This document shows, piece by piece, positions 1,422 to 48,363 of a stretch of DNA of 51,038 nt. Position numbers and translations under genes: made by a program. The stretch comes from a virus (lineage: Duplodnaviria; Heunggongvirae; Uroviricota; Caudoviricetes): the IMG/VR virus record IMGVR_UViG_2778261009_000008, positions 1 through 51,038 of that record; one strand, given 5' to 3'. The notes below the pieces were generated by a model that worked only from the letters and a program-made list of their open reading frames with translations, did not search any database and was not told the origin of the DNA. The stretch's first letter is position 1. The number at the start of each line of letters is the position of its first letter.

Positions 1422-3893
1422 TTAAAAATCAGCCTGACTCGGGATCAGTTTTTGCCAGATGGCTGAAACGTATTTTGCCTGGTAACGCGCATCGTGCAGC
1501 GCGTTATGGCGTTCACCTTCGAATGGAATAGTCGTTCTTGCGTCGAAATCCATCACCAGTCCCAGAGCAACCATCGTTCTTACATCGCGATCATTGGTGT
1601 AACGCCACGGGCAGGGGATCCCCTGCCGTTCATATGAACGGCGTAAAATCACGTTGTCGAAAGTTGCACCGTTACCCCAGACCTGAACAAAAAATTCACC
1701 GGAGTTTTCGTCGATAAATTCCCGGAATTGCAGCAGTGCATCATCCAACGGGATTTCATCGGTCAGAATGGCGGATTGTGCTTCGCGTGACTGTTTCAGC
1801 CACCACTTAATGGTGTCCCGATCGATGACCCCGCCTGCGGTTTCCAGATCGATAGTTTTGCTGAATTCTGGCCCCATCTCTCCGGTTGCCGGATCAAAAA
1901 ACTTACCGGCTATAGCGTTTATTGGCGCATCAGGATTTTTTCCCATTGTTTCAAGGTTAATCATCAGATGGTGCCACAACCTGCTGGTGGATGTGGTTTC
2001 ATGATGACCGTTCACTTTAATTAAGGGATTTGCTGTTTCGCCAGTTTTATTATCGCTGGCGTGATACTGATCGCTGACAGTGTTCTCCTTGTGCAGATGT
2101 TCAGTGCCTTCCATTTCCTCCGGATCATTTTCCTGAGCTTCAGCCTGATTCTCTTCATCGAATGTTTCCTGGTAGGTTGCGTTCCCCATCACCGCACCAC
2201 AGTCAGGACAGTTGCCGCCACCGGTCTGACCGCATGCGGTGCAAACTTTTTCCAGTTCCTGTTGCACTGCTGGTTCTGGTTGTTGTTCTTCTGGCCCGTT
2301 TTGTTGCGTATCCGGGCTGTTTTGTTCCGCTTCTGGCTCATTTTGTTTCACGTTGGGCTGATTCTGGTCCTCAGCGTCGCGACTCTGGATCCCTTTCACC
2401 CATTTCGGATCATCCGGGTCGCTAATCCCTTCAACAAATTCACCACGTGATGCAGCAAGCAATTTATCGGCGTCAGGCTGGCTGATATTGGCTGCCTGCA
2501 TCATTTTGTTTACTTCGTCAGCGGTAACTTTTACCGGCTCTGGTTGTTCGGAATCTTCAGTGCTATCCACATTTTGCGGTAAGCCCGTGTATGTGCCATT
2601 TTTTCGGGCAAAATATTCTTCTTTTGAGATTTCGGTACCGCCGGCAGCCAGCGCCCTGTCCAGACCAGAAAGTTTGTTTGCCCTGCCGTATTTTTCCCCG
2701 CCCTTATCGGTAAAGACGAAATAAAATGGTCCTTCACGCTCTACAGATGGTTCAGCTTCCACCAGGATTTCATTTTTTTGAGTATCGGATTCTGCCGTCT
2801 CCACTGGAGCAGTTTGTGCTGCTGGTGACTGGAGAGCATCAGCAGAGCTCTGGTCTGTTTCTTCATGTTCAAACACGCCCTTTGTCGTCAGGTATTCGCT
2901 GATATATTTGTTCAGTGCAACGGGATCTTTGTGAATATCGATCGGACGTTCGCGAACAAGGCCAAAAATAGTCTGATGGTCATAGGCAAGTGCTTCGGGC
3001 TGTTTGCGCATTGATGCTGAGATACGCTTCCAGTCTTCGCGATCCTTGTCGATAACCTCATTTGTCGCCCAGCGATGGATGGTACCGTCAATGTTTCCTG
3101 CATCCACATCACCGGGCCAGAGGGCGCAGGCCAGTTCATTGTCGAGTGTTTTCCATGTCTGTTTGTATTCGCGGCGAACGGCAACAGTGACAGCCCCGGT
3201 TTTTTCAGCAGCGTTTTCAGTGTTCTGTTGGTTTACTCTGGAACGGGCGATATCAACGACAGATATGTATTTCCCGGTTTCCTTGCGTTCACTTTCGCGA
3301 CGTTTTTTCCAGATGCGCATCTCTGCCTGAATTTCGGGCCATTTAGCAGCAGGTTTACATTTATGCTTAACCCACCCGATGGCATGCAGCTTAAGCTCCG
3401 GATACATGGCGTTAACTTCTGGCATCTTCATCAACGCTTCAACGATATGGCCGTCGAATGTTGCCATGTCTTCCTGCAACAATTCCTGAGCGCTAATCAC
3501 CATATCAACAGTGATGTTTTCACATGCGTCGAACTTAACCATGACGGCGTTCTGTACTTCAGGGGCCAGATTGTCAAAAGTGACGTTCATCGGTTCGGAT
3601 TCGGGTTCGACCGGGACAAAGGACGCAGACTCCTCATCCCAGCGGTTTTCCTGCATATATTCGGTATCCCAGGAATCGAGGGCAGGGCGGGGTATACCGG
3701 GTTTATCCTCGCAGACAATAAATTTATAAGCGCAGTCCTGAGCTGCCGGGAATTGCTCCAGAAATTGCCAGTGAAATTTTGCGCGTGCGCGACGCTCATC
3801 ACCGGCTTCAATGGCAGTGGCCACCGCAACAGCGCTATCTTCTTCTATGGCCTGTTCGTCAGGAATAGCAGCGCAAATAAAGATTTTATTCAT
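1422..3893 (-). CDS. Early-left exonuclease (exodeoxyribonuclease VIII-like; C-terminal DnaQ/DEDDh-type 3'-5' exonuclease domain)
   Basis: 823 aa ORF; C-terminal motifs (…[12 protein letters not shown]…, …[13 protein letters not shown]…) resemble DEDDh exonucleases; central CxxC…CxxC zinc-ribbon-like motif (CTACG…CPDCG) and an acidic/Q-rich low-complexity linker; position equals the recombination gene slot of lambdoid phages. Confidence 0.75.
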
Positions 3894-18336: not shown

Positions 18337-18412
18337 GGCCCTTTAGCTCAGTGGTGAGAGCGAGCGACTCATAATCGCCAGGTCGCTGGTTCAAATCCAG
18401 CAAGGGCCACCA
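18337..18412 (+). tRNA. tRNA with anticodon CAT (Met, or Ile2 if lysidine-modified)
   Basis: Hand-folded cloverleaf: acceptor GGCCCTT/AAGGGCC, D-arm GCTC…GAGC, anticodon loop CTCATAA, T-arm GCTGG-TTCAAAT-CCAGC, encoded CCA. Confidence 0.85.
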
Positions 18413-18421
18413 TATCACATA

Positions 18422-18498
18422 CCGCCATTAGCTCATCGGGATAGAGCGCCAGCCTTCGGAGCTGGCTGCGCGGGGTTCGAGTCCTCGATGGCGGTCCA
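18422..18498 (+). tRNA. tRNA-Arg (anticodon TCG)
   Basis: Hand-folded cloverleaf: acceptor CCGCCAT/ATGGCGG, anticodon stem CCAGC/GCTGG with loop CTTCGGA (U33, G37), T-loop TTCGAGT, encoded CCA. Confidence 0.8.
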
Positions 18499-19261: not shown

Positions 19262-20640
19262 TGCTGTGAAGTGTTAAATTCCTCACAATTCAGTAAGTTG
19301 ACAGTTGCCTGTCAGACTGGGCATTTGTTAAAAAAATTTCGCATGGTGAATCCCCCTGTGCGGAGGGGCGACTGGTGAACGGTATGATCTCTTTGATGAT
19401 CGTAAGCGAGAATACGCGGGTTTAGTGTCACCGGGCTGAACTCACCGGGAGGCACCCGGCACCATGCTCATGGTGATACAGAAATGCGGCTTCAGCCCCT
19501 CTCTGGAGGGGCTTTCTTATGGACAAAAAAGCCCGCGCTGGGAGACGCGGGCGGCAAGGAATAAACAATAAAACGTGAAGTAATATTTCAGCTGGCGAAT
19601 AATACCCCATAGTAATCACTCTGCGCAACTGCGCGGCCTTTTTCGAATTGCGGGCTGTAGTCTCCCTTCTGCCGGGTGGCCTGGTTGCAGATTTCTTCAT
19701 GGGGTAGGGTTCGGCAGTTAAAGCAGCGATGGCGCTGGGGCGTCGTGCTATAGGCGTTGAGCTGGATACCGGGCGTTTTGAACAGACTGCGCAGGCAATC
19801 AGGGATATATTTATCGGTAGCTGTTTGCAGAAGTAATCTCCCAAAATTCCATTTTTGGAATGCAGTGGTTGTTGCTGTAGTGTGGGCAAGTTCTGGAACT
19901 GGCTTCGTCCATTGCAGATGATTGTTAGCTGGATATCAGTTACCTCATGGAAATGTTAAATGACTCACAGTTCGGTTGATGGACTATTGTCTGATTGATG
20001 GAAGTCTTGTAAAAACGAGCCAGCATAGTGAATCCCCCTGTGCGGAGGGGCGTCTGACATGGTCTCCATAGCGATGGTCACAATACGCAGATTCAGTAGT
20101 CAGGCTGAATCTACCGGGAGGCACCCGGCACTATGCTGCTTATGGTGTATACACAGCGATCGGCCCCTCTCCTGAGGGGCTTTTTTTGTGCGGGAAAAGG
20201 CTGTGTTGTGAAATGTTAAATTCCTCACAATTCATGAGGTTGATGATTGTCTGATTGATGAGGAGTTTGTTAAAAAAAGCGGGCATGGTGAATCCCCCTG
20301 TGCGGAGGGGTGATATCGTATCATTTCCTGTGTGGTCGACTGATATCACGGACATTTGTTCACCGGGAGGCACCCGGCACCATGTAGTATACAGAGATTA
20401 GGCATACATCCAGGCTCCTCATTGCAGGAGCCTTTTTACATGCAAAAAAAACCGCTCCAGGGAAGAGCGGTTGGCAAGGAATAAATAACAAAACGTGAAG
20501 TAATTTATTCAGCGCCCTAATAATACCTTACAGTAATCACATTGCGCAACTGTATGTAAGGGCGTATTTCTTTTTTGCGGGCTGTTTTGTGTGACTTTTG
20601 TGTTTCCGGAGGTCAGCCCGTGCCTTCTCTGACTCAGAAC
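19262..20640. repeat. Triplicated non-coding module (conserved blocks A-B-C plus hairpin, three tandem paralogous copies)
   Basis: Block A (GAAATGTTAAATTCCTCACAATTCA) at about 19270/19949/20210; block B (GTGAATCCCCCTGTGCGGAGGGG) at 19347/20028/20287; block C (CACCGGGAGGCACCCGGCACCATG) at 19443/20112/20361; each followed by a GC hairpin (T-run clear only in copy 2); an about 80-bp block D at 19554 and 20473. Confidence 0.6.
19681..19835 (+). pseudogene. Duplicated 3' fragment of the DNA methyltransferase gene
   Basis: About 125 bp near-identical to 18156-18290 (the C-terminal 47 codons of the 17238-18296 gene) with a TCG to TAG change; no start or upstream gene body. Confidence 0.7.
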
Positions 20641-20662: not shown

Positions 20663-22651
20663 ATGGCATTTAAACACTACGATGTGGTCAGGGCGGCATC
20701 GCCGTCAGACCTTGCTGAACGACTGACACAAAAACTGAAGGAGGGGTGGCAGCCATTTGGCAGCCCTGTCGCCATCACGCCTTATACCCTGATGCAGGCT
20801 ATTGCGGCGGAAGGTGATGTCACCACGCCGGTGCTGGTTAAACCATCGGGTGACGGGGAGACGGCTATCAGCAAGACCGGTGAGCCTGAATATTATTATG
20901 TTGTCGCGCTGGCGGGTCAGTCAAATGGTATGTCTTTTGGAGAGGGAGTACCGTTACCTGATTCTTATGATCGCCCTGATCCGAGAATTAAGCAGCTTGC
21001 CCGTCGACGTACCGTTACGCCGCGAGGCGTTCCCTGCACCTATAACGATGTTATTCCGGCAGATCATTGTCTTCATGATGTGATGGATATGAGTGAAAAA
21101 AATCACCCCCGGGCAGACCTCAATAAAGGTCAGTATGGTTGTGTGGGTCAGGGACTGCATATTGCCAAAAAACTGTTACCGTTTATACCGGCGAATGCGG
21201 GCATTCTTCTGGTTCCATGCTGTCGTGGAGGCTCGGGAGTGACTACAGGTAATGAGGGAACATTTAACGCCTCTTCCGGGGCAAGCCCTGATTCTGCATT
21301 GTGGGGAGCTGATAAGCCGCTGTACCAGGATCTGTTAAGTCGCACGAAAGTCGCGCTGGCTAAAAATCCCGGAAATATCCTGCTGGCGGTAATCTGGATG
21401 CAGGGGGAGAGTGATCTGGCTTCAGGAAGCCAGAGTCATAATGCTCTTTTTACTGGCATGGTACAGAAATTCCGTGCTGACATCGCTGATATGTCAGGGC
21501 AGTGCGTGGGGGGCTCGGCACTGAGCGTTCCGTGGGTTTGTGGCGATACGACGCATTACTGGAAAGAAAAATATGCTGCGTCTTATGAAACTGTATACGG
21601 TGGATATAAAAATAAGGCAGCGCAGAATATTCACTTTGTCCCTTTCATGGTTGATGGAAGCGGGGTAAATGTGCAGACCAATAATCCGGCAGAAGATCCT
21701 GATATTGAAGGTATTGGCTACTCCGGTTCGAAGTGGCGAGACAGTTCTGTCAGCTGGACGTCAGGTGACAGGGCAAGCCATTTCGGTTCATGGGCGCGGC
21801 GTGGAATTATTTCAGATCGTCTTGCAACCGCAATTCTGACCCACGCAGGCAAATACCCGGCGTTTATCACCGGGCGGTCAGAAACGGTAGTTGCAGGAGA
21901 TGAACGGGAAAACGTTACATCCGGAGATTTCCCGTCACCTGTGGAGGATGCTGCGTTATCACAGGATGCACCTCAGAGAAGAACGGTTGTTGAGTATAAT
22001 TCAGCTGTTGAGAAAGACAGCCTCGGTGGTAACTGGGCAGCCCAGCACTGGAATGCCCGGGACGGTGTCGCCGAGTTTGTTAATGATGAAAGCAGACAGG
22101 TGCTGAAGATTAAGCAGCATGAGGGCAAACAGGGACCGTGGATGCTGTCAGCAGGAGTATCAGCTGAAGATGCCCGTGCTCTGTATGAAAATGGCGGTGA
22201 AATAAAACTTGAATTCAGGTTGCCGGATGGTACCCAGGTTGCAGATAACAAATACCTCTTTGGTGTTTACCTGCCAGTTTCCGGGTGGACTCAGGAAGGC
22301 AACAGCAGCAATATGATGGCCTCCTTTTTCACTCAGACAAAAGCCAGTAACCTGGATGTCATGTATCACGGTAAAACACAGCCTAATACAAAAATTGAGT
22401 CATTCGGTGCGGTTAATAACAACTGGCACACGCTTGTCTTTAAATATAAAGGAGGCGGCAATCACCAGGTTATTCCGGTACTTGACGGAGAAGAGAAAAC
22501 AGGTTTTGCACTGAAAGAAGGTCCGGTCACTTCTGCCTTTACGGTGGATAACATCACAGTGACAGGTATCAGCGCAAATCAGGGAAAATCTTATCCTGTC
22601 ATGTTCCGCAGTATCATGGTAAGCATTAACCAGGCAACCTCTTCATCATAA
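20663..22651 (+). CDS. Sialate O-acetylesterase, NanS-p-like (DUF1737 + SGNH esterase)
   Basis: 662 aa; N-terminus MAFKHYDVVRAAS… and esterase block YYVVALAGQSNGM; matches the prophage nanS-p gene that follows stxAB in Stx phages. Confidence 0.8.
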   Translation: MAFKHYDVVRAASPSDLAERLTQKLKEGWQPFGSPVAITPYTLMQAIAAEGDVTTPVLVKPSGDGETAISKTGEPEYYYVVALAGQSNGMSFGEGVPLPDSYDRPDPRIKQLARRRTVTPRGVPCTYNDVIPADHCLHDVMDMSEKNHPRADLNKGQYGCVGQGLHIAKKLLPFIPANAGILLVPCCRGGSGVTTGNEGTFNASSGASPDSALWGADKPLYQDLLSRTKVALAKNPGNILLAVIWMQGESDLASGSQSHNALFTGMVQKFRADIADMSGQCVGGSALSVPWVCGDTTHYWKEKYAASYETVYGGYKNKAAQNIHFVPFMVDGSGVNVQTNNPAEDPDIEGIGYSGSKWRDSSVSWTSGDRASHFGSWARRGIISDRLATAILTHAGKYPAFITGRSETVVAGDERENVTSGDFPSPVEDAALSQDAPQRRTVVEYNSAVEKDSLGGNWAAQHWNARDGVAEFVNDESRQVLKIKQHEGKQGPWMLSAGVSAEDARALYENGGEIKLEFRLPDGTQVADNKYLFGVYLPVSGWTQEGNSSNMMASFFTQTKASNLDVMYHGKTQPNTKIESFGAVNNNWHTLVFKYKGGGNHQVIPVLDGEEKTGFALKEGPVTSAFTVDNITVTGISANQGKSYPVMFRSIMVSINQATSSS

Positions 22652-42613: not shown

Positions 42614-42643
42614 CAGGCACCCTCCGGGGTGCCTGTTGTTTTT
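42614..42643 (+). terminator. Strong hairpin plus T-run in the I-J intergenic insert
   Basis: CAGGCACCC-TCCG-GGGTGCCTG followed by TTGTTTTT, about 45 bp upstream of the J start. Confidence 0.5.
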
Positions 42644-42686
42644 GGGCATAAACAGATTCAGACATCAGACAGGAGAGGGGGACAGT

Positions 42687-45600
42687 GTGGGTAAAGGGGG
42701 CGGCAAGGGGCACACACCGCGTGAGGCGAAGGACAATCTCAAATCAACGCAGATGATGAGCGTGATTGATGCCATTGGTGAGGGACCGGTGGAAGGTCCG
42801 GTGAAGGGACTGCAGAGTATTCTGGTGAACAAAACCCCGCTGACGGACACGGACGGTAATCCTGTGATACACGGTGTGACCGCCGTCTGGCGTGCCGGGG
42901 AGCAGGAGCAGACACCGCCGGAAGGCTTTGAGTCCTCCGGGGCGGAAACCGCACTGGGCGTGGAGGTGACGAAGGCAAAGCCGGTGACGCGCACCATCAC
43001 GTCAGCGAACATTGACCGTCTGCGGGTCACCTTCGGGGTGCAGTCACTGGTGGAGACCACCTCAAAGGGTGACCGTAACCCCTCTTCTGTCCGCCTGCTG
43101 ATTCAGCTTGAGCGTAACGGTAACTGGGTGACGGAGAAGGATATCACCATTAACGGCAAGACTACCTCGCAGTACCTGACGTCGGTGATTCTGAATAATC
43201 TCCCTGAGCGCCCCTTTAACATCCGGATGGTCAGGGAGACGGCGGACAGCACCACGGACCAGCTGCAGAACAGAACGCTGTGGTCGTCATACACCGAAAT
43301 CATCGATGTGAAACAGTGCTACCCGAACACGGCGATTGTGGGGCTGCTGGTGGATGCGGAGCAGTTTGGTGGCCAGCAGCTGACGGTGAACTACCATATC
43401 CGTGGTCGCATCATCCAGGTGCCGTCAAACTATGACCCGGAAAAACGCACCTACAGCGGTATCTGGGACGGGAGTCTGAAACCGGCATACAGCAATAACC
43501 CGGCCTGGTGCCTGTGGGACATGCTGACCCACCCGCGCTACGGGATGGGAAAACGCCTGGGGGCCGCGGATGTGGACAAGTGGGCACTGTATGCCATCGG
43601 GCAGTACTGCGACCAGACGGTCCCGGATGGTTTCGGAGGCACAGAGCCGCGGATGACCTTTAATGCGTACCTGTCACAGCAGCGTAAGGTGTGGGATGTC
43701 CTGGGGGATTTCTGCTCGGCGATGCGCTGTATGCCGGTATGGAACGGCCAGACGCTGACGTTCGTTCAGGACCGCCCGTCGGATGTGGTGTGGCCGTACA
43801 CCAACAGCGATGTGGTGGTGGATGATAACGGCGTGGGGTTCCGCTACAGCTTCAGTGCCCTGAAGGACCGGCACACGGCGGTGGAGGTGAATTACACTGA
43901 CCCGCAGAACGGCTGGCAGACTTCCACGGAACTGGTGGAAGACCCGGACGCCATCCTGCGCTACGGACGCAATCTGCTGAAGATGGATGCGTTTGGCTGT
44001 ACCAGCCGCGGTCAGGCCCACCGTGCCGGACTGTGGGTGATAAAGACCGAACTGCTGGAAACGCAGACGGTGGATTTCACGCTCGGGTCACAGGGGCTGC
44101 GGCACACACCCGGTGACATCATTGAAATCTGTGATAACGACTACGCCGGGACCCTGACCGGCGGACGCATCCTGTCCATGGATGCCGCCAGTCGCACCCT
44201 GACGCTGGACCGTGAGGTGACCCTGCCGGAGACAGGTACATCGACGGTGAACCTGATTAACGGCAGCGGTAAGCCGGTGCGCGTGGACATCACTGCACAC
44301 CCCGCCCCTGACCGGATACAGGTCAGCGTCCTGCCGGATGGCATGGAGACATACGGTGTGTGGGGACTCTCCCTGCCGTCACTGCGTCGTCGCCTGTTCC
44401 GCTGTGTTTCCATCCGGGAAAACACGGACGGCACTTTTGCCATCACGGCAGTGCAGCACATACCGGAAAAAGAAGCCATCGTGGATAACGGGGCCCGCTT
44501 TGAGCCGCTGTCCGGTTCACTGAACAGCGTCATCCCGCCGGCAGTGCAGCACCTCACGGTGGAGGTGAGTGCCTCAGACGGCCAGTATCTGGCGCTGGCG
44601 AAATGGGACACGCCGCGGGTGGTGAAGGGCGTGCGCTTCAGTCTGCGCCTGACCAGTGGCAGTGGTGAAAACAGCCGCCTGGTGACCACCGCCATCACTG
44701 CCGACACGGAGCACCGTTTCAGTGGCCTGCCTCTGGGGGAATACACCCTGACGGTCAGGGCGATAAACAGCTACGGCCAGCAGGGCGAACCTGCCACCAC
44801 CACGTTCCGGATTAACGCCCCGGCAGCACCGGACAGCATTGAGCTGACGCCGGGGTATTATCAGATAACAGCAGTACCGGTGCTGGCGGTGTATGACCCG
44901 ACGGTACAGTATGAATTCTGGTTCTCAGAAAAACGCATCACGGACACGGCACAGGTGGAAATCTCTGCCCGTTATCTGGGGACAGGCAGCCAGTGGAGTG
45001 TCTCCGGCCCGCACATTAAGCCGGGGAGGGATTTCTGGTTTTATGTGCGCAGCGTCAACCTGGTGGGGAAATCTGCGTTTGTGGAAGCCAGTGGCCGGGC
45101 GAGCAATGATGCGGAAGGGTATCTGGACTTTTTCAGAGGAGAAATCGGGAAGACACATCTGGCACAGGGGATGTGGGAGCTGATTGATAACAGCCAGCTT
45201 GACGATGAGATGGCGGAGATGAAGACCACCATCACCGAAACCCGCAATGAAATCACGCAGACGGTCAGTAAAACTCTGGAAGACCAGAGTGCCACCATAC
45301 AGCAGATACAGCGGGTGCAGACAGACACAAATAACGACCTGGCTGCGCTGTACATGCTGAAGGTGCAGAAAACAAAAAACGGCATTCCGTATGTTGCCGG
45401 TATAGGTGCGGGGATTGAGGATGCTGATGGCCAGCCCCTGAGCAATATACTGCTGCAGGCGGACCGTATCGCGATGATTAACCCGGAGAACGGCAACACC
45501 ACGCCGCTGTTTGTGGCGCAGGGGAATCAGCTGTTCATGAACGATGTGTTCCTGAAGCGGTTGTTTGCAGTGAGCATCACCTCGTCCGGCAATCCCCCGA

Positions 45601-46154
45601 CGTTCTCCCTGACGCCGGAGGGCAGGCTGACGGCCCGCAATGCGGACATCAGCGGACATATCAGTGCGAACTCGGGCACGCTCAATAATGTCGTGATAGC
45701 GGAGAACTGTACGATAAATGGCACGCTGAAAGCGGAGAACATTATTGGTGATCTTGTGAAATGTGCAGGGGTGGCTTTTCCGGTGGATGGTAGTTACCTT
45801 GCGAACGGTACACGAACGCTGACGGTGTATGACGATCACAGCTTTGACCGGCAGATTATAATCCCGCCGATAATCTATGTCGGGTCAAAACAGGAATCCC
45901 GCACCAGTAATGACATCTGGACAGAGTGCTTCCTGCATGTTGATCAGAACGGACGCCGGATTTATTCAGGCAGGTCAGTGACAGATCCGGGAATTTTCAG
46001 CGGGATCATCGATATGCCAGCCGGTCATGGTCATATCACCCTGAGTTTTACCGTAAGTTCACGACGTCAGAACGGGAGTTTTGGCAGTTCACGTATCAGT
46101 AACCTTCAGGCGATAGTGGTGAAGAAAAACAGCGCGGGGATCAGTATCCGCTGA
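42687..46154 (+). CDS. J: Tail tip / host specificity protein J
   Basis: About 1155 aa from GTG after SD AGGAGAGGGGG; N-terminus (M)[21 protein letters not shown]… parallels lambda J, with similarity along the length. Confidence 0.9.
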
Positions 46155-46352
46155 ACATCGCGCCCCGGGATTGCCGGAAGGAGACAAAAACCGTACAGTA
46201 TGCGCGGGTGCCTTTGGCTGATGGCCGGAGGGAACACCTGAAGGCCGGATGTGAAAAGGCCCCGGGCAAACATTCATGTTTAACCCGAGGCCTGACCATT
46301 CATCCTAAGCAAGTGAAAGGTTAGCGCCTCTCCGTAAAAGGAGCAAGCGTTT

Positions 46353-46493
46353 ATGTCGCAAAAACCGTTAAAAACCACCGTGATTTGTATCACGGTAGTG
46401 CTCATTATCTGGATCACCCACAGTTCACTGTGCGAGTTCCGGTTCCGGATAGCGGGCGCGGAGATTGCGGCGTTCTTACAGTGTAAGCAGTAA
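46353..46493 (+). CDS. Hok/Gef-family type I toxin (putative)
   Basis: 46 aa ORF (MSQKPLKTTVICITVVLIIWITHSSLCEFRFRIAGAEIAAFLQCKQ): one TM helix then the Hok signature SLCE…EIAAFL; SD GGAG upstream; below track cutoff. Confidence 0.55.
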   Translation: MSQKPLKTTVICITVVLIIWITHSSLCEFRFRIAGAEIAAFLQCKQ

Positions 46494-46635
46494 GAAACCG
46501 TGGCGGGGGAGAATATCCCCCGCCGACCGGTTGCTGAGGGTGGTCAGCCGGATGGCACCGTTTTAACACCAACAAACCACAAATATTACCGCAGGCCGGG
46601 AAACCGGTACTGCGGTTTTTTTATGGGGGAAATCC

Positions 46636-48363
46636 ATGACAGTCAGAATATCGGGTGTGCTGAAGGATGGTACGGGAAAAGCGGTACCGGGATGCACGAT
46701 AGAGCTGAAAGCGCGCCGCACAACGGAGACGGTGATTGTCACCACGGTGGCGTATGGTCAGCCGGGGGAAACCGGCAGTTACAGTATGGATGTTGAGCCG
46801 GGGTTGTACCGGGTGACGCTGAACACGGAAGGGTACGCGCCGTCATATGTGGGTGACATTCTGGTGAAGGCGGATTCTGCACCGGGAACGCTGAATAAAT
46901 TTCTGATGGACCTGGAGGACGCACAGTATTACCCGAAAGCCCTTGCAGAGCTGGAAGCGGTGGCAGCGGAAATCCTGAAACGTGCAGAAGCGTCAGCGGC
47001 CAGTGCGGAGGAGGCAAAAAAACGGGCAGAGAATGCGCGGGGACCGAAGGGGGATAAGGGGGACACCGGGCCGCAGGGTATTCCCGGGCCAAAAGGCGAT
47101 ACCGGCGAGCGGGGGCCAAAGGGTGAGCGTGGTGAGACAGGACCACAGGGGCTTCAGGGTGTGAAAGGTGAACGGGGAGAGAAGGGCGAAAAAGGCGAGC
47201 CGGGAGGGCCGGATGCGACGACGGCACAGAAGGGAATTGTGCAGTTAAGCAGCACAACGGACAGTGATGATGAAACGAAGGCAGCCACCCCGAAAGCGGT
47301 GAAAGCGGCAATGGACAAAGCGGACGGATGCCTGGAGAAAGCGAAAAACGGTGACGATATCCCGGATAAGGTGAAGTTTCTGAACACCGTGGGAGCAGCC
47401 AGAGTATACGGGCGGGACATTCATACGGGGGCCGGTGAATGGACCACGAGTGAGTTTGTCGCCTGGCTGAAAGAAAAAGGGGCATTTGACCAGCCTTACT
47501 GGATGATGAAGGCATCACTGCCTGCGGTAATGAATAAAGTCATCACGGATGTCGGACCGGGAAAACTCAATCTGGGTGGCTGCGCCATTGAGGTGATGGG
47601 GACGTATAACGCAGCCATAGTCCGGGTCACCATTGGCGAATACGGTGCAACGGGGTTTATTAATGGCACGGTCTGTACCTGTACGGTTTACGGCGACACA
47701 CAGTATTTCCACTGGCGGGTGGATTACAGCACAAAAAACAAACCGGATACGGTCAGCCAGCGGGATGCCAGCACGACGCAGAAAGGTGTGGTGCAGTTAA
47801 GCAGTGATACTGGCAGTAATGACGAAACAAAGGCAGCCACGCCGAAGGCCGTGAAGGCGGCAATGGATGTGGCAAATGAAGCGAAAACAAAGGCAGAAGA
47901 GGCTGCAGCAGGAGGTGGTGTTCCCGGTCCGAAAGGAGAGAAAGGTGACCCCGGAGCACAGGGTCCGAAAGGTGAAACGGGAGCAACAGGCCCCGCTGGT
48001 CCGCGGGGAGCGCAGGGACCGAAAGGGGAGAAAGGAGACCCCGGTCCCAGAGGTGAGCGTGGAGAAACCGGGCCGATGGGGCCGCCCGGGGCATCAGACG
48101 GGAAGAGCCGGGTTGTGGGTATCAGGCTGGGTAATAAACAGACTTATGCGCCGCAAACAGACAGCACTACATGGGCAGTGGATTTGGATATTGGTGCGAT
48201 GATTACGGGGATTGGCGGTTACAACGACGGAAACAAAACCCTTATTGACAGGGTATCTTACAGGCCGCTTCAGGTGACATTTGATGGTTCTCAGTGGCGT
48301 ACAGTCAGCGTGGGTGAGTATGTGTCGTCAGGAGCTTCGGGGTTTGAGTATTTTCCATTATAA
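46636..48363 (+). CDS. stf: Side tail fibre protein (Stf-like) with collagen-like Gly-X-Y repeats
   Basis: 575 aa; N-terminus [15 protein letters not shown]… parallels lambda Stf; two fibre-repeat motifs (QKG.VQLSS…[15 protein letters not shown]) and two Gly-X-Y tracts. Confidence 0.85.

Follow-up and report, generated by a model that had tools for sequence, protein, structure and literature searches.

A probable hok/sok-type cassette without a mok leader frame in the J-tail fibre gap of a prophage

The toxin gene and its setting

The window, i.e., the whole stretch of 51,038 nucleotides that was analyzed (IMG/VR record IMGVR_UViG_2778261009_000008), carries a small toxin gene of the Hok family between two tail genes. 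The upstream neighbor is J (42636-46154), with six GpJ Pfam domains, and the downstream neighbor is the tail fibre gene (46636-48363), in which phage_tail_N, collagen and fibre repeats are recognized. The domain content of both neighbors confirms the placement between J and the side tail fibre gene given in a first-pass annotation of this DNA. The annotation had also recognized the slot as the one used for lom, and indeed a related prophage holds an Ail/Lom gene in exactly the same J-stf gap. In E. coli SCU-104, an Ail/Lom gene separates gpJ from a tail fibre gene that shares ~90% identity with the window's over its 5' end, and homology to the window sets in again ~10 nt ahead of the fibre ATG. 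The lom gene of lambda occupies the same slot, but its product, an outer-membrane beta-barrel, is unrelated. In Stx phages both are present, lom first and then the hok cassette. The cassette is a self-contained "moron" in a gap that is filled by lom in lambda and some relatives.

The module comprises ~455 bp (46171-46622, + strand). A span of 46155-46500 had been assigned to it before; the locus was right, but the extent was too short. As both fbi and the terminator are found beyond 46500, the functional unit reaches ~46622. The following features are distinguished:

46171..46199, + strand: predicted hok promoter, with -35 TTGCCG (46171-46176), a 17-nt spacer and -10 TACAGT (46194-46199)
46206..46226, + strand: predicted 5' end of the hok mRNA and tac element GGGUGCCUUUGGCUGAUGGCC, from homology to hok mRNA 5' ends and pairing with fbi
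46255..46263, + strand: ucb-like box AAAGGCCCC, alternative partner of tac, paired with GAGGCC (46287-92) in the full-length fold
46287..46292, + strand: GAGGCC, positional homologue of the R1 mok Shine-Dalgarno (SD) sequence, with no start codon downstream
46293..46317, + strand: hypervariable patch, forming the arms and loop of the predicted antisense-target stem-loop and complementary to the Sok-like 5' tail
46310 to ~46252, - strand: predicted Sok-like antisense RNA of ~59 nt, with an 18-nt 5' tail, a terminator hairpin (46292-46258) and a UUUUC tail
46318..46346, - strand: predicted Sok-like promoter, its -10 TAACCT and -35 TTGCTC being the reverse complements of 46318-46323 and 46341-46346, 17 nt apart
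46326..46343, + strand: dcb-like box GCCUC (46326-46330), anti-SD CUCC (46330-46333) and hok SD GGAG (46340-46343)
46353..46493, + strand: coding sequence of the hok-family toxin, ATG start, 46 aa, Hok cluster 79 of the 2025/26 catalogue
46502..46524, + strand: GC-rich 3' hairpin GGCGGGGGA-GAAUA-UCCCCCGCC, also detected by the scanner as an inverted repeat
46542..46559, + strand: fbi element GGUCAGCCGGAUGGCACC, partner of tac (46206..46226) in the minimum free energy (MFE) structure
46588..46622, + strand: intrinsic terminator of the hok mRNA, with its stem at 46588-46616 and U7 to 46622

The open reading frame at 46353..46493 translates to MSQKPLKTTVICITVVLIIWITHSSLCEFRFRIAGAEIAAFLQCKQ. A longer form of the toxin is excluded by the in-frame TAA at 46335-46337. 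The peptide has one strongly hydrophobic stretch (residues 8-22, Kyte-Doolittle 15-residue mean up to 2.5), and the motifs SLCE and EIAAFL occupy residues 25-28 and 37-42, in keeping with the earlier description of a 46-aa Hok-family frame with one transmembrane helix and an SLCE/EIAAFL signature. Moreover, residues C27, E28, E37, A39 and F41 align with R1 Hok and HokC. A search with the Pfam profile HOK_GEF (PF01848), which the annotation had proposed, gave 43.5 bits (gathering score 22; E 2.4e-11) and covered profile positions 8-42 of 42. The toxin also matched PHROG 251 "MokW-like host killing" (E 1.8e-21). It did not reach the cut-offs of the NCBIfam HokA equivalog NF007290 (38.2 vs 89 bits) and of the NCBIfam Hok-family subfamily NF007279 (37.2 vs 73 bits). 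Judged by these profile scores, the toxin belongs to a divergent Hok subfamily and not to HokA. Neither a second hok locus nor a hokW-type copy turned up when the DNA of the window and its six-frame translation were searched with profiles.

The family is well represented in existing resources. RefSeq WP_000078852.1, a "Hok/Gef family protein," is identical to the toxin and is also encoded between gpJ and a tail fibre gene. This entry, PHROG 251 and Hok clusters 79 and 72 (Escalera-Maurer et al., bioRxiv 10.1101/2025.08.07.668861) represent the same family at 98-100% identity, and PHROG 251 is classed as a phage moron. All three cover the coding sequence only; the authors of the catalogue state that Mok, Sok and the mRNA ends are outside their analysis (bioRxiv 10.1101/2025.08.07.668861). 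The same study included 79_1563, which is identical to the window's toxin at 45 of 46 residues, in a panel for toxicity upon induced expression. The representatives 79_1563, 72_1589 and 72_1621 are reported to be toxic when induced, and the only non-toxic homologues were 19_179, 60_1482 and 69_1540, so that 79_1563 is not among them. Frameshifted copies of the gene occur now and then (L078, L082).

Folding of the messenger and the predicted antisense RNA

The predicted hok promoter agrees with the consensus at 8/12 positions. It was therefore not listed by the promoter scanner, which has a threshold of 9/12. Neither the hok promoter nor the antisense promoter was detected by the scanner, both being weak consensus matches. 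Relatives whose upstream DNA is unrelated mostly have a T-A-x-x-x-T hexamer (TAGAAT, TAAATT, TAGATT) equally far from the conserved 5' end of the mRNA, and in one locus (L009) a weaker TACCAA occupies the -10 position. Similarity among differing genomic contexts starts at the hok -35. The tac region aligns with the mRNA 5' ends of R1 and hokC, and its GGGTGCC is nearly invariant (18/18 aligned sequences; two single-base variants among 56 unique modules).

The hok mRNA is predicted to span ~46206-46622, with a leader of 148 nt (~46206-46352). The leader shows nucleotide homology to other hok leaders, as aligned with R1, K-12 hokC and phage 75/02. It matches Rfam RF01794, which models the hok-mRNA strand, over the full model length (1-157) with E 1.9e-11; the score of 57 bits misses the gathering score of 59 by 2 bits. 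The full-length mRNA including the leader is far more stable than shuffled sequence (z = -7.3). The fold, the Rfam match and the compensatory changes described below bear out the long structured leader expected at 46160-46350. Fold-back elements, for which the annotation had suggested looking, are present as well: tac and fbi, at the two ends of the messenger, pair in both the MFE structure and the RNAalifold consensus.

The consensus helices were examined in 18 loci. Partners were paired in 97.6% of the cells, compared to 36-42% when they were slid, and both-side changes were found at ten pairs, compared to two in the slid controls. The covariation values were matched by 0/500 shuffles. Both-side changes affect 4/4 pairs of the outer tac-fbi helix (columns 22-25 with 373-376) and 5/9 pairs of the 3' hairpin. 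The fbi core GGCACC is kept in 17/18 loci, the remaining one (L084) having GGCCCC. Two further helices are kept in the 18 loci, one flanking the SD (46322-27 with 46347-52) and one joining the start-codon region and the EIAAF codons. The hok SD is paired to CUCC, with P(unpaired) ~0 in both the full-length and the truncated RNA.

The truncated hok mRNA of R1 ends in a terminal hairpin (PMC9841398). By analogy, the hairpin at 46502..46524 likely protects the 3' end of a processed mRNA. The terminator (-21.6 kcal/mol, z = -4.1) lies 14 nt ahead of the tail fibre ATG at 46636, and relatives in other contexts have a comparable hairpin and U-tract after fbi. The computed structure of the hok mRNA combines the hallmarks of its kind, namely tac-fbi end pairing, a sequestered hok ribosome binding site (RBS), a stable 3' hairpin and a terminator of its own.

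A cis-encoded antisense RNA had been expected from the nature of the toxin. Conserved hexamers, a strand-asymmetric hairpin and a hypervariable patch give this expectation strong but indirect support, and we infer that a Sok-like antisense RNA is encoded opposite the leader. The search for its promoter, likewise suggested earlier, yielded a candidate -35/-10 pair that is conserved among variants. The -10 is TAACCT in all variants but two, which have TATCCT, the -10 of R1 sok as derived by eye. The -35 reads TTGnnn (TTGACT in Stx phages) or TTTACT and lies 17-18 nt from the -10. The -10 directly adjoins the dcb box GCCUC, as it does in K-12 sokC and also in R1, whose sok-promoter mutation falls in dcb (PMC9841398).

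The predicted start is at ~46310/46311, and the predicted geometry equals that of the annotated K-12 sokC (59 nt), which was used as a ruler. A folding energy of -25.7 kcal/mol was computed for the predicted RNA, and z = -4.3 for an antisense stretch of slightly greater length. In 22/22 variants, the antisense hairpin folds more stably as minus-strand than as plus-strand RNA (mean -22.3 vs -13.4 kcal/mol), since C.A mismatches on the plus strand become G.U pairs on the minus strand. Another antisense promoter (-35 TTTACG, -10 CACTTG), taken from a first MAFFT alignment with R1 and hokC, was rejected: its -35 falls within the loop of the SD hairpin, a variable segment that reads TGAGTG, TTATCG and others in relatives, and its antisense RNA would not be complementary to the target loop.

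The putative antisense target coincides with the most variable part of the module. Among 22 relatives that are >90% identical, nucleotide diversity is 0.248 in the patch and 0.028 in the rest of the module, a difference of about nine-fold. The target loop CCUAAGCAA (46304-46312) contains the YUNR motif CUAA. Per-sequence folds predict the target hairpin in most variants, and an arm-swap permutation test gave p ~0.036, which is of modest significance. These two approaches were used because length variation made the MAFFT alignment of this hairpin unusable for pair counting. Where a genome holds several copies, their antisense patches differ in 6/8 genome groups and are identical in 2/8; a rule that co-resident copies always have different patches is thus not established.

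Altogether, the locus is very probably an intact type I toxin-antitoxin cassette of the hok/sok kind with antisense control. The paradigm of type I systems is hok/sok (parB) of plasmid R1. The window's cassette shares with it a Hok peptide with one transmembrane helix and the SLCE...E.AAF motif (33% identity) and colinear nucleotide homology from the mRNA 5' end to fbi. Also shared are the tac-fbi pairing, the ucb, GAGG and dcb boxes, the terminal 3' hairpin and the terminator, as well as an antisense -10 next to dcb and an antisense RNA in which a terminator hairpin follows a short 5' tail, both predicted here. The two differ in location, the one being plasmid-borne and the other placed in a prophage tail operon. 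The window's peptide is also shorter (46 aa, ending in QCKQ, vs 52 aa in R1), and so is its dcb-to-SD distance, as a result of which the antisense -35 overlaps the hok SD. The hokC (gef)/mokC/sokC locus of E. coli K-12 likewise has a homologous leader, antisense hairpin and promoter geometry, and hokC scores 118 bits on RF01794, compared to 57 bits for the window.

The missing mok frame and a model of control

This hok/sok-type cassette is already annotated and catalogued, and it is ordinary except for its missing mok leader frame. R1 has a mok frame and K-12 an annotated mokC frame overlapping hokC, whereas the window contains no mok-type ORF (ATG, GTG or TTG start) that enters the hok start region. 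The absence of the canonical frame had gone unnoticed in the first-pass annotation. A conserved mok leader ORF is absent from 56/56 variants, and relatives have only sporadic, non-homologous ORFs. The open frame ahead of a conserved UAG measures 2 to 39 codons and often has no start codon. An ATG at 46276 in the window (MFNPRPDHSS) was considered as a mok start and rejected, as it is not kept in relatives. The GAGGCC that takes the place of the mok SD is kept in all relatives save one (L080), but no conserved ATG, GTG or TTG follows it among them. In the absence of a mok frame, the canonical activation step cannot apply, and control must act at hok's own RBS and not via translational coupling.

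The ucb and dcb boxes are present and conserved in the 56 unique modules. The exceptional relative has GAGACC in place of GAGGCC and compensates for it in both partners, with ucb GGUCCC and dcb GUCUC; this coupled triple change is found in a single lineage. In the 3'-truncated RNA, a conformer with enforced tac-ucb pairing (and GAGGCC-dcb pairing) is only 1.5 kcal/mol above the MFE. It exposes the target hairpin with an open loop and loosens the hok RBS, and masking of the Sok-paired region closes the RBS again. When the 3'-truncated mRNA was folded without constraints, the RBS did not open as expected, and the hok SD stayed closed. The switch is therefore reported as a model, the opening being seen with enforced tac-ucb pairing only.

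According to this model, a weak promoter would supply the lysogen with a stable, translationally closed full-length hok mRNA. Slow trimming of the 3' end would remove fbi, whereupon tac could pair with ucb and GAGGCC would be freed for dcb. The GAGGCC-dcb pairing would then build the target hairpin and loosen the hok RBS. The short, unstable Sok-like RNA (~59 nt) would contact the loop of this hairpin with its 5' tail and then pair with GAGGCC and ucb, handing dcb and the anti-SD back to the hok RBS; cleavage by RNase III would probably follow. Once the supply of antisense RNA ends, the stable mRNA pool would be translated and Hok would damage the inner membrane. The supply might be stopped by loss of the prophage, by the shut-off of host transcription by an infecting phage, or by convergent Q-antiterminated late transcription that runs through J into the cassette. 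As the cassette lies in the late tail operon and faces such transcription, induction could silence the antisense promoter by transcriptional interference.

Distribution and possible roles

The subfamily is found in ~28% of complete E. coli genomes (1530/5426), with up to 7 copies each, and its carriers are mostly Stx-type and other lambdoid prophages. The cassette occurs after J, after lom and after P2-type gpD, and these several contexts indicate that it is mobile between genomic contexts. A search for an "empty site," i.e., the same J end and fibre start with no cassette, found none; among 100 genomes with one match covering at least 80% of the junction query, every match listed had the ~470-bp spacing. 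A scan of genome contigs gave few subfamily members. Two of them were in implausible hosts, a Planococcaceae MAG and Vagococcus, and are probably contamination.

A prophage-borne hok/sok-type locus of E. coli lambdoid phages has been studied before, namely hokW-sokW of the Stx2 phages Sp5/933W. The published experiments cover its toxicity, its antisense antitoxin and a role in phage release upon induction (Takada et al. 2021; PMC8621323). HokW differs from the window's toxin: it is a HokD/C-like protein of 51 aa (MKQQKAM...DYESEK). In Sp5/933W-type phages, the relative of the window's gene is the L0129/H0145 ORF, which directly follows lom (~78% nucleotide and 65% peptide identity). Among prophage hok loci, hokW-sokW alone has, to our knowledge, been studied experimentally.

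No single biological role of the cassette, be it addiction, defense or help in lysis, is considered probable here; the likelihood of each stays somewhat short of even. With the hok/sok identity accepted, it is tentatively proposed that the cassette acts mainly as a lysis helper, in which Hok would speed membrane damage and phage release on induction after loss of the antisense RNA, perhaps through collision with late transcription. In Sp5 treated with mitomycin C, sokW RNA vanishes and HokW appears in a RecA-dependent manner, and deletion of hokW-sokW halves phage release (PMC8621323). The analogy is weakened by the fact that hokW is assigned to another Hok cluster and has a different position, being placed in 933W at ~58.7 kb on the other strand and not at ~45.5 kb. 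In favor of this role, the cassette is embedded in the late tail operon and shares its strand with J and stf, its antisense promoter would face oncoming late transcription, and members of the subfamily repeatedly lie at or within tail-gene clusters. Nevertheless, a promoter and a terminator of its own suggest that the cassette is also expressed in the lysogen. The self-contained promoter, terminator and antisense architecture fits constitutive expression in the lysogen, a point in favor of a role mainly in addiction or defense, as the first-pass annotation had suggested. The cassette would then kill cells that lost the prophage (post-segregational killing) or cells whose transcription is shut off by a lytic phage (abortive infection). 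Post-segregational killing by R1 hok/sok is established, as summarized in PMC9841398, T4 exclusion by the same system is cited in PMC8621323, and hok genes are ~four-fold enriched in prophages. This role is nonetheless held to be rather doubtful. A single-copy integrated prophage is seldom lost, the preprint reports that hok is not enriched near defense systems, and, according to background cited there, the chromosomal hok loci tried so far, the K-12 loci included, did not give post-segregational killing (bioRxiv 10.1101/2025.08.07.668861).

It is quite improbable that the cassette is a silenced or decaying relic whose ORF is intact but untranslatable without mok and whose RNA features are conserved through recent common descent. 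The absent mok frame, the hok SD closed in unconstrained folds and the frameshifted copies would agree with decay, and chromosomal hok loci of K-12 are considered inactive according to the same preprint (bioRxiv 10.1101/2025.08.07.668861). Against this, the ORF is intact in 55/56 unique module sequences, whose peptides are 52-100% identical across several genera, and the median pairwise dN/dS is 0.27. Furthermore, helices are maintained by compensatory changes, the strand-specific hairpin is retained in all 22 variants, and the cassette has spread among unrelated prophage types. All these observations are signs of selection and not of drift.

A wider proposal joins the lysis helper to the model of control. 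The hok subfamily formed by clusters 72 and 79, with its QCKQ C-terminus, may be a mok-independent hok/sok variant, in which GAGGCC would remain solely as an anti-anti-SD that opens the hok RBS after 3' processing; the antisense RNA would repress by capturing it, with no leader ORF to block. Induction could silence the antisense promoter and make the cassette a timed lysis helper, and the patch would give co-resident copies separate specificities. As a whole, this proposal is speculative and rather unlikely to hold in every part.

The gene itself adds nothing new, as it is annotated in RefSeq, classed as a moron in PHROGs and included with toxicity data in the recent Hok catalogue. A narrower point could matter, namely that a subfamily carried by many E. 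coli genomes seems to do without mok coupling, the defining step of the textbook model. If the cassette does modulate lysis timing or prophage retention in Shiga-toxin-producing strains, this would bear on the release of toxin and phage. Mechanistic studies would then also have a version of the hok folding switch that is simpler, with two parts.

Toxin gene and genomic setting

The window is a lambdoid prophage, in which a terminase and a tape-measure protein are also encoded.

Features of the prophage and of the hok region
1-1131, lambda-type integrase
19312-19524, 19994-20189 and 20254-20443, copies of sRNA family STnc100 (RF02076)
42636-46154, + strand, J protein with six GpJ domains
46171-46199, + strand, predicted hok promoter (TTGCCG, 17 nt, TACAGT)
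46353-46493, + strand, hok ORF
46346-46318, - strand, predicted antisense promoter (TTGCTC, 17 nt, TAACCT)
46310 to about 46252, - strand, predicted Sok-like RNA (59 nt; short 5' tail and terminator hairpin)
46588-46622, + strand, intrinsic terminator (-21.6 kcal/mol, z = -4.1)
46636-48363, + strand, tail fibre with phage_tail_N domain and collagen repeats

The first-pass annotation reported a 46-aa Hok/Gef ORF between J and the side tail fibre gene, which was confirmed. The ORF starts with ATG and encodes MSQKPLKTTVICITVVLIIWITHSSLCEFRFRIAGAEIAAFLQCKQ; a longer form is excluded by an in-frame TAA (46335-46337). One strongly hydrophobic stretch (residues 8-22) precedes the motifs SLCE (residues 25-28) and EIAAFL (residues 37-42), and the peptide passed the proposed Pfam HOK_GEF search with 43.5 bits (E 2.4e-11; gathering score 22). 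PHROG 251 'MokW-like host killing', category moron, was matched as well (E 1.8e-21). Since the peptide scored far under the thresholds curated in NCBIfam for its HokA and Hok-family models, its sequence places it in a divergent branch of the Hok family.

Of 56 unique module sequences, 55 keep an intact ORF; the median pairwise dN/dS is 0.27, an approximate value, as RNA-structure constraints within the CDS may distort dS. Two relatives, L078 and L082, carry frameshifted ORFs (MSQNR* and ...AGRGDCGVLTV), showing that the toxin gene decays occasionally. Homologue 79_1563 (plasmid LRP163), which differs from the window peptide at the last residue only, was included in a toxicity panel of 45 homologues, of which 42 proved toxic; 79_1563 is not one of the three that did not. 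The panel also contained 72_1589 and 72_1621, variants from Stx phages (bioRxiv 10.1101/2025.08.07.668861). Hok genes are enriched about four-fold in prophages (bioRxiv 10.1101/2025.08.07.668861).

A stretch 100% identical to that of the window lies beside potB in the E. coli GE3 chromosome, where the PGAP annotation gives gpJ, 'Hok/Gef family protein' WP_000078852.1 and the tail fibre in this order. The same junction occurs in 119 complete E. coli genomes, and some subfamily member in 1530 of 5426, with up to seven copies each. The description of the locus as the lom slot of lambda is correct, because in E. coli SCU-104 an Ail/Lom gene fills the J-stf gap in place of hok; similarity to the window restarts about 10 nt upstream of the fibre start codon.

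Copies in Stx phages (933W L0129, VT2-Sakai H0145, 'MokW-like' of phage 75/02) are about 78% identical and directly follow lom, and other subfamily members follow gpD, closing P2-like tail clusters. As hok directly follows a P2-type gpD or baseplate gene in three loci from genome and viral collections (L008, L080, L085; neighbours integrase or DNA methylase), the cassette is common to lambdoid and P2-like prophages. Its presence in these several contexts, after J, lom or P2-like gpD, indicates that it moves between prophage types as one unit. Subfamily members in contigs labelled Planococcaceae MAG and Vagococcus sp. (L006 and L007) closely resemble Salmonella copies, which makes contamination of the two assemblies with enterobacterial DNA the likeliest explanation. 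Two distinct hok loci occur in Stx phages. One is hokW-sokW, which has been studied (about 58.7 kb in 933W); the other, as yet unstudied, is a copy of the window's subfamily immediately 3' of lom (about 45.5 kb in 933W; hok at 3186-3326 of the phage 75/02 locus). Annotations name the post-lom copy 'MokW-like', although it encodes a Hok homologue and lacks mok.

Elsewhere in the window, two tRNA genes (18337-18495) precede the STnc100 copies, which lie just upstream of a NanS-p-like DUF1737-SASA esterase ORF (20663-22651); this is the late-region position of stx in Stx phages. The tail fibre and DUF4376 genes are followed, at the end of the prophage, by a 331-aa ORF (49483-50478) with a C-terminal YadA-like membrane anchor, which may encode a trimeric autotransporter of the Eib kind.

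Module limits and mRNA fold

In an alignment of 21 loci from different genomic contexts, similarity sets in abruptly at the -35 hexamer and the conserved CGCGGGTGCC, and stops after GGCACC and the terminator. Judged from these boundaries, the module spans about 46171-46622. The interval originally reported (46155-46500) thus contains the gene and its leader but falls short of the complete unit. The predicted hok promoter matches the consensus weakly and was absent from the list of a consensus scanner. Nevertheless, most relatives whose upstream DNA is unrelated have a T-A-x-x-x-T hexamer at a constant distance from the conserved 5' end of the mRNA; locus L009 has a weaker TACCAA there. The strong terminator ends 14 nt upstream of the fibre ATG, so fibre expression must depend on antiterminated late transcription through the cassette.

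The whole locus is colinear with R1-type hok/sok and K-12 hokC/sokC. Rfam RF01794 matched 46206-46364 over its full length (57 bits, E 1.9e-11), under its gathering score of 59. In K-12, its match (602-754 of the compared locus) falls on the strand of hokC and stops at the start codon of that gene. Though named 'sok antitoxin', it models the hok-mRNA strand; hence its matches mark the leader and not the antisense gene.

The long structured leader implied by the first-pass annotation was supported. The predicted mRNA of 418-420 nt folds at -189 kcal/mol (z = -7.3 against shuffles), and 46542-46559 is the pairing partner of its 5' end (46207-46226), as in the tac-fbi closure of R1 (summarised in PMC9841398). 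Over 18 non-identical loci, 97.6% of cells were paired in the consensus structure, compared with 36-42% with slid partners, and ten pairs were changed on both sides, compared with two; none of 500 shuffles reached these values. As the structure was predicted from the same alignment, the percentage paired is inflated; the double-change count is not affected. Double changes cluster at two sites: all 4 pairs of the outer tac-fbi helix, and 5 of the 9 pairs of a GC-rich hairpin at 46502-46524. This hairpin resembles the terminal hairpin by which the processed mRNA of R1 is protected. In the predicted fold, CUCC (46330-46333) pairs with the Shine-Dalgarno sequence of hok (46340-46343; P(unpaired) about 0), and the start-codon region with the EIAAF codons.

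Predicted antisense RNA and a possible switch without mok

We infer a Sok-like antisense RNA on the minus strand from promoter hexamers, a strand-biased hairpin, a Sok-type design and a patch of diversity. The sok-like promoter that had been anticipated would be the TTGCTC/TAACCT pair. The -10 is TAACCT in all variants but two, which have TATCCT, the -10 derived for R1 sok. The -35 varies as TTGnnn (TTGACT in Stx phages) or TTTACT, with 17-18 nt spacing. As in K-12 sokC and in R1, the -10 directly adjoins the dcb box GCCUC; the sok-promoter mutation of R1 is located in dcb (PMC9841398). An alternative promoter from the first alignment was dropped because its -35 sits in a variable loop.

Every one of 22 variants folds the 46258-46292 hairpin far more stably on the minus strand (mean -22.3 vs -13.4 kcal/mol). 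Positions that are C.A mismatches in the mRNA are G.U pairs in the antisense strand, where the hairpin is followed by a U-rich tail. The predicted RNA equals annotated sokC in length. In 22 relatives that share more than 90% identity with the window, 46293-46317 has a diversity of 0.248, compared with 0.028 elsewhere; this patch coincides exactly with the 5' tail of the predicted antisense RNA and its target. Most variants are predicted to form a stem-loop there whose arms change together (arm-swap test, p ~0.036, modest significance). Copies within one genome differ in the patch in six of eight genome groups and are identical in two. A second short hypervariable patch (46243-46262) is complementary to the predicted antisense 3' tail.

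Unlike textbook hok/sok, the window system has no mok: no ATG, GTG or TTG ORF runs into the hok start region, and in relatives only sporadic, non-homologous ORFs enter it. Among 56 unique variants, the frame ending at a conserved UAG is open for 2 to 39 codons and in many cases lacks a start codon. GAGGCC (46287-46292) preserves the mok Shine-Dalgarno box of R1, with no initiation codon after it. Mok and Sok were not analysed in the Hok catalogue (bioRxiv 10.1101/2025.08.07.668861), and a limited literature search found no published description of mok absence in this subfamily.

Folding models make a mok-free switch by refolding after 3' trimming possible. The unconstrained fold of the trimmed mRNA leaves the hok ribosome-binding site closed, and a tac-ucb conformer (ucb 46255-46263) lies only 1.5 kcal/mol above it. 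In this conformer, GAGGCC would pair with dcb (46326-46330), a target hairpin with the 9-nt loop CCUAAGCAA, containing a YUNR motif, would stand opposite the predicted antisense 5' end, and the helix closing the ribosome-binding site would open. P(unpaired) rises from 0.01 to 0.21 for the Shine-Dalgarno sequence and from 0.46 to 0.85 for the spacer; masking the antisense-paired region is predicted to close the site again. In L080, ucb (GGUCCC), GAGACC and dcb (GUCUC) have changed together, which suggests, in a single lineage, three-way covariation of the kind that an element switching between two partners would leave.

Candidate roles and significance

The observation was confirmed and its interpretation is supported. 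Addiction or post-segregational killing and abortive infection, both raised in the first-pass annotation, are candidate roles. Help with lysis and release on prophage induction, shown for hokW-sokW of Sp5 (PMC8621323), is a further candidate by analogy, but hokW-sokW belongs to a different Hok cluster and occupies another place in the phage; no copy of it was found in the window. The cassette lies within the late operon in the orientation of J and stf, and its predicted antisense promoter faces oncoming late transcription; this arrangement makes loss of the antisense RNA on induction plausible.

As the window hok gene is already annotated and catalogued, the finding is an ordinary one. Three features are of note for type I toxin-antitoxin regulation: mok is absent, the antisense hairpin is strand-specific and the target patch is hypervariable. 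They are modest variations on a well-known system.
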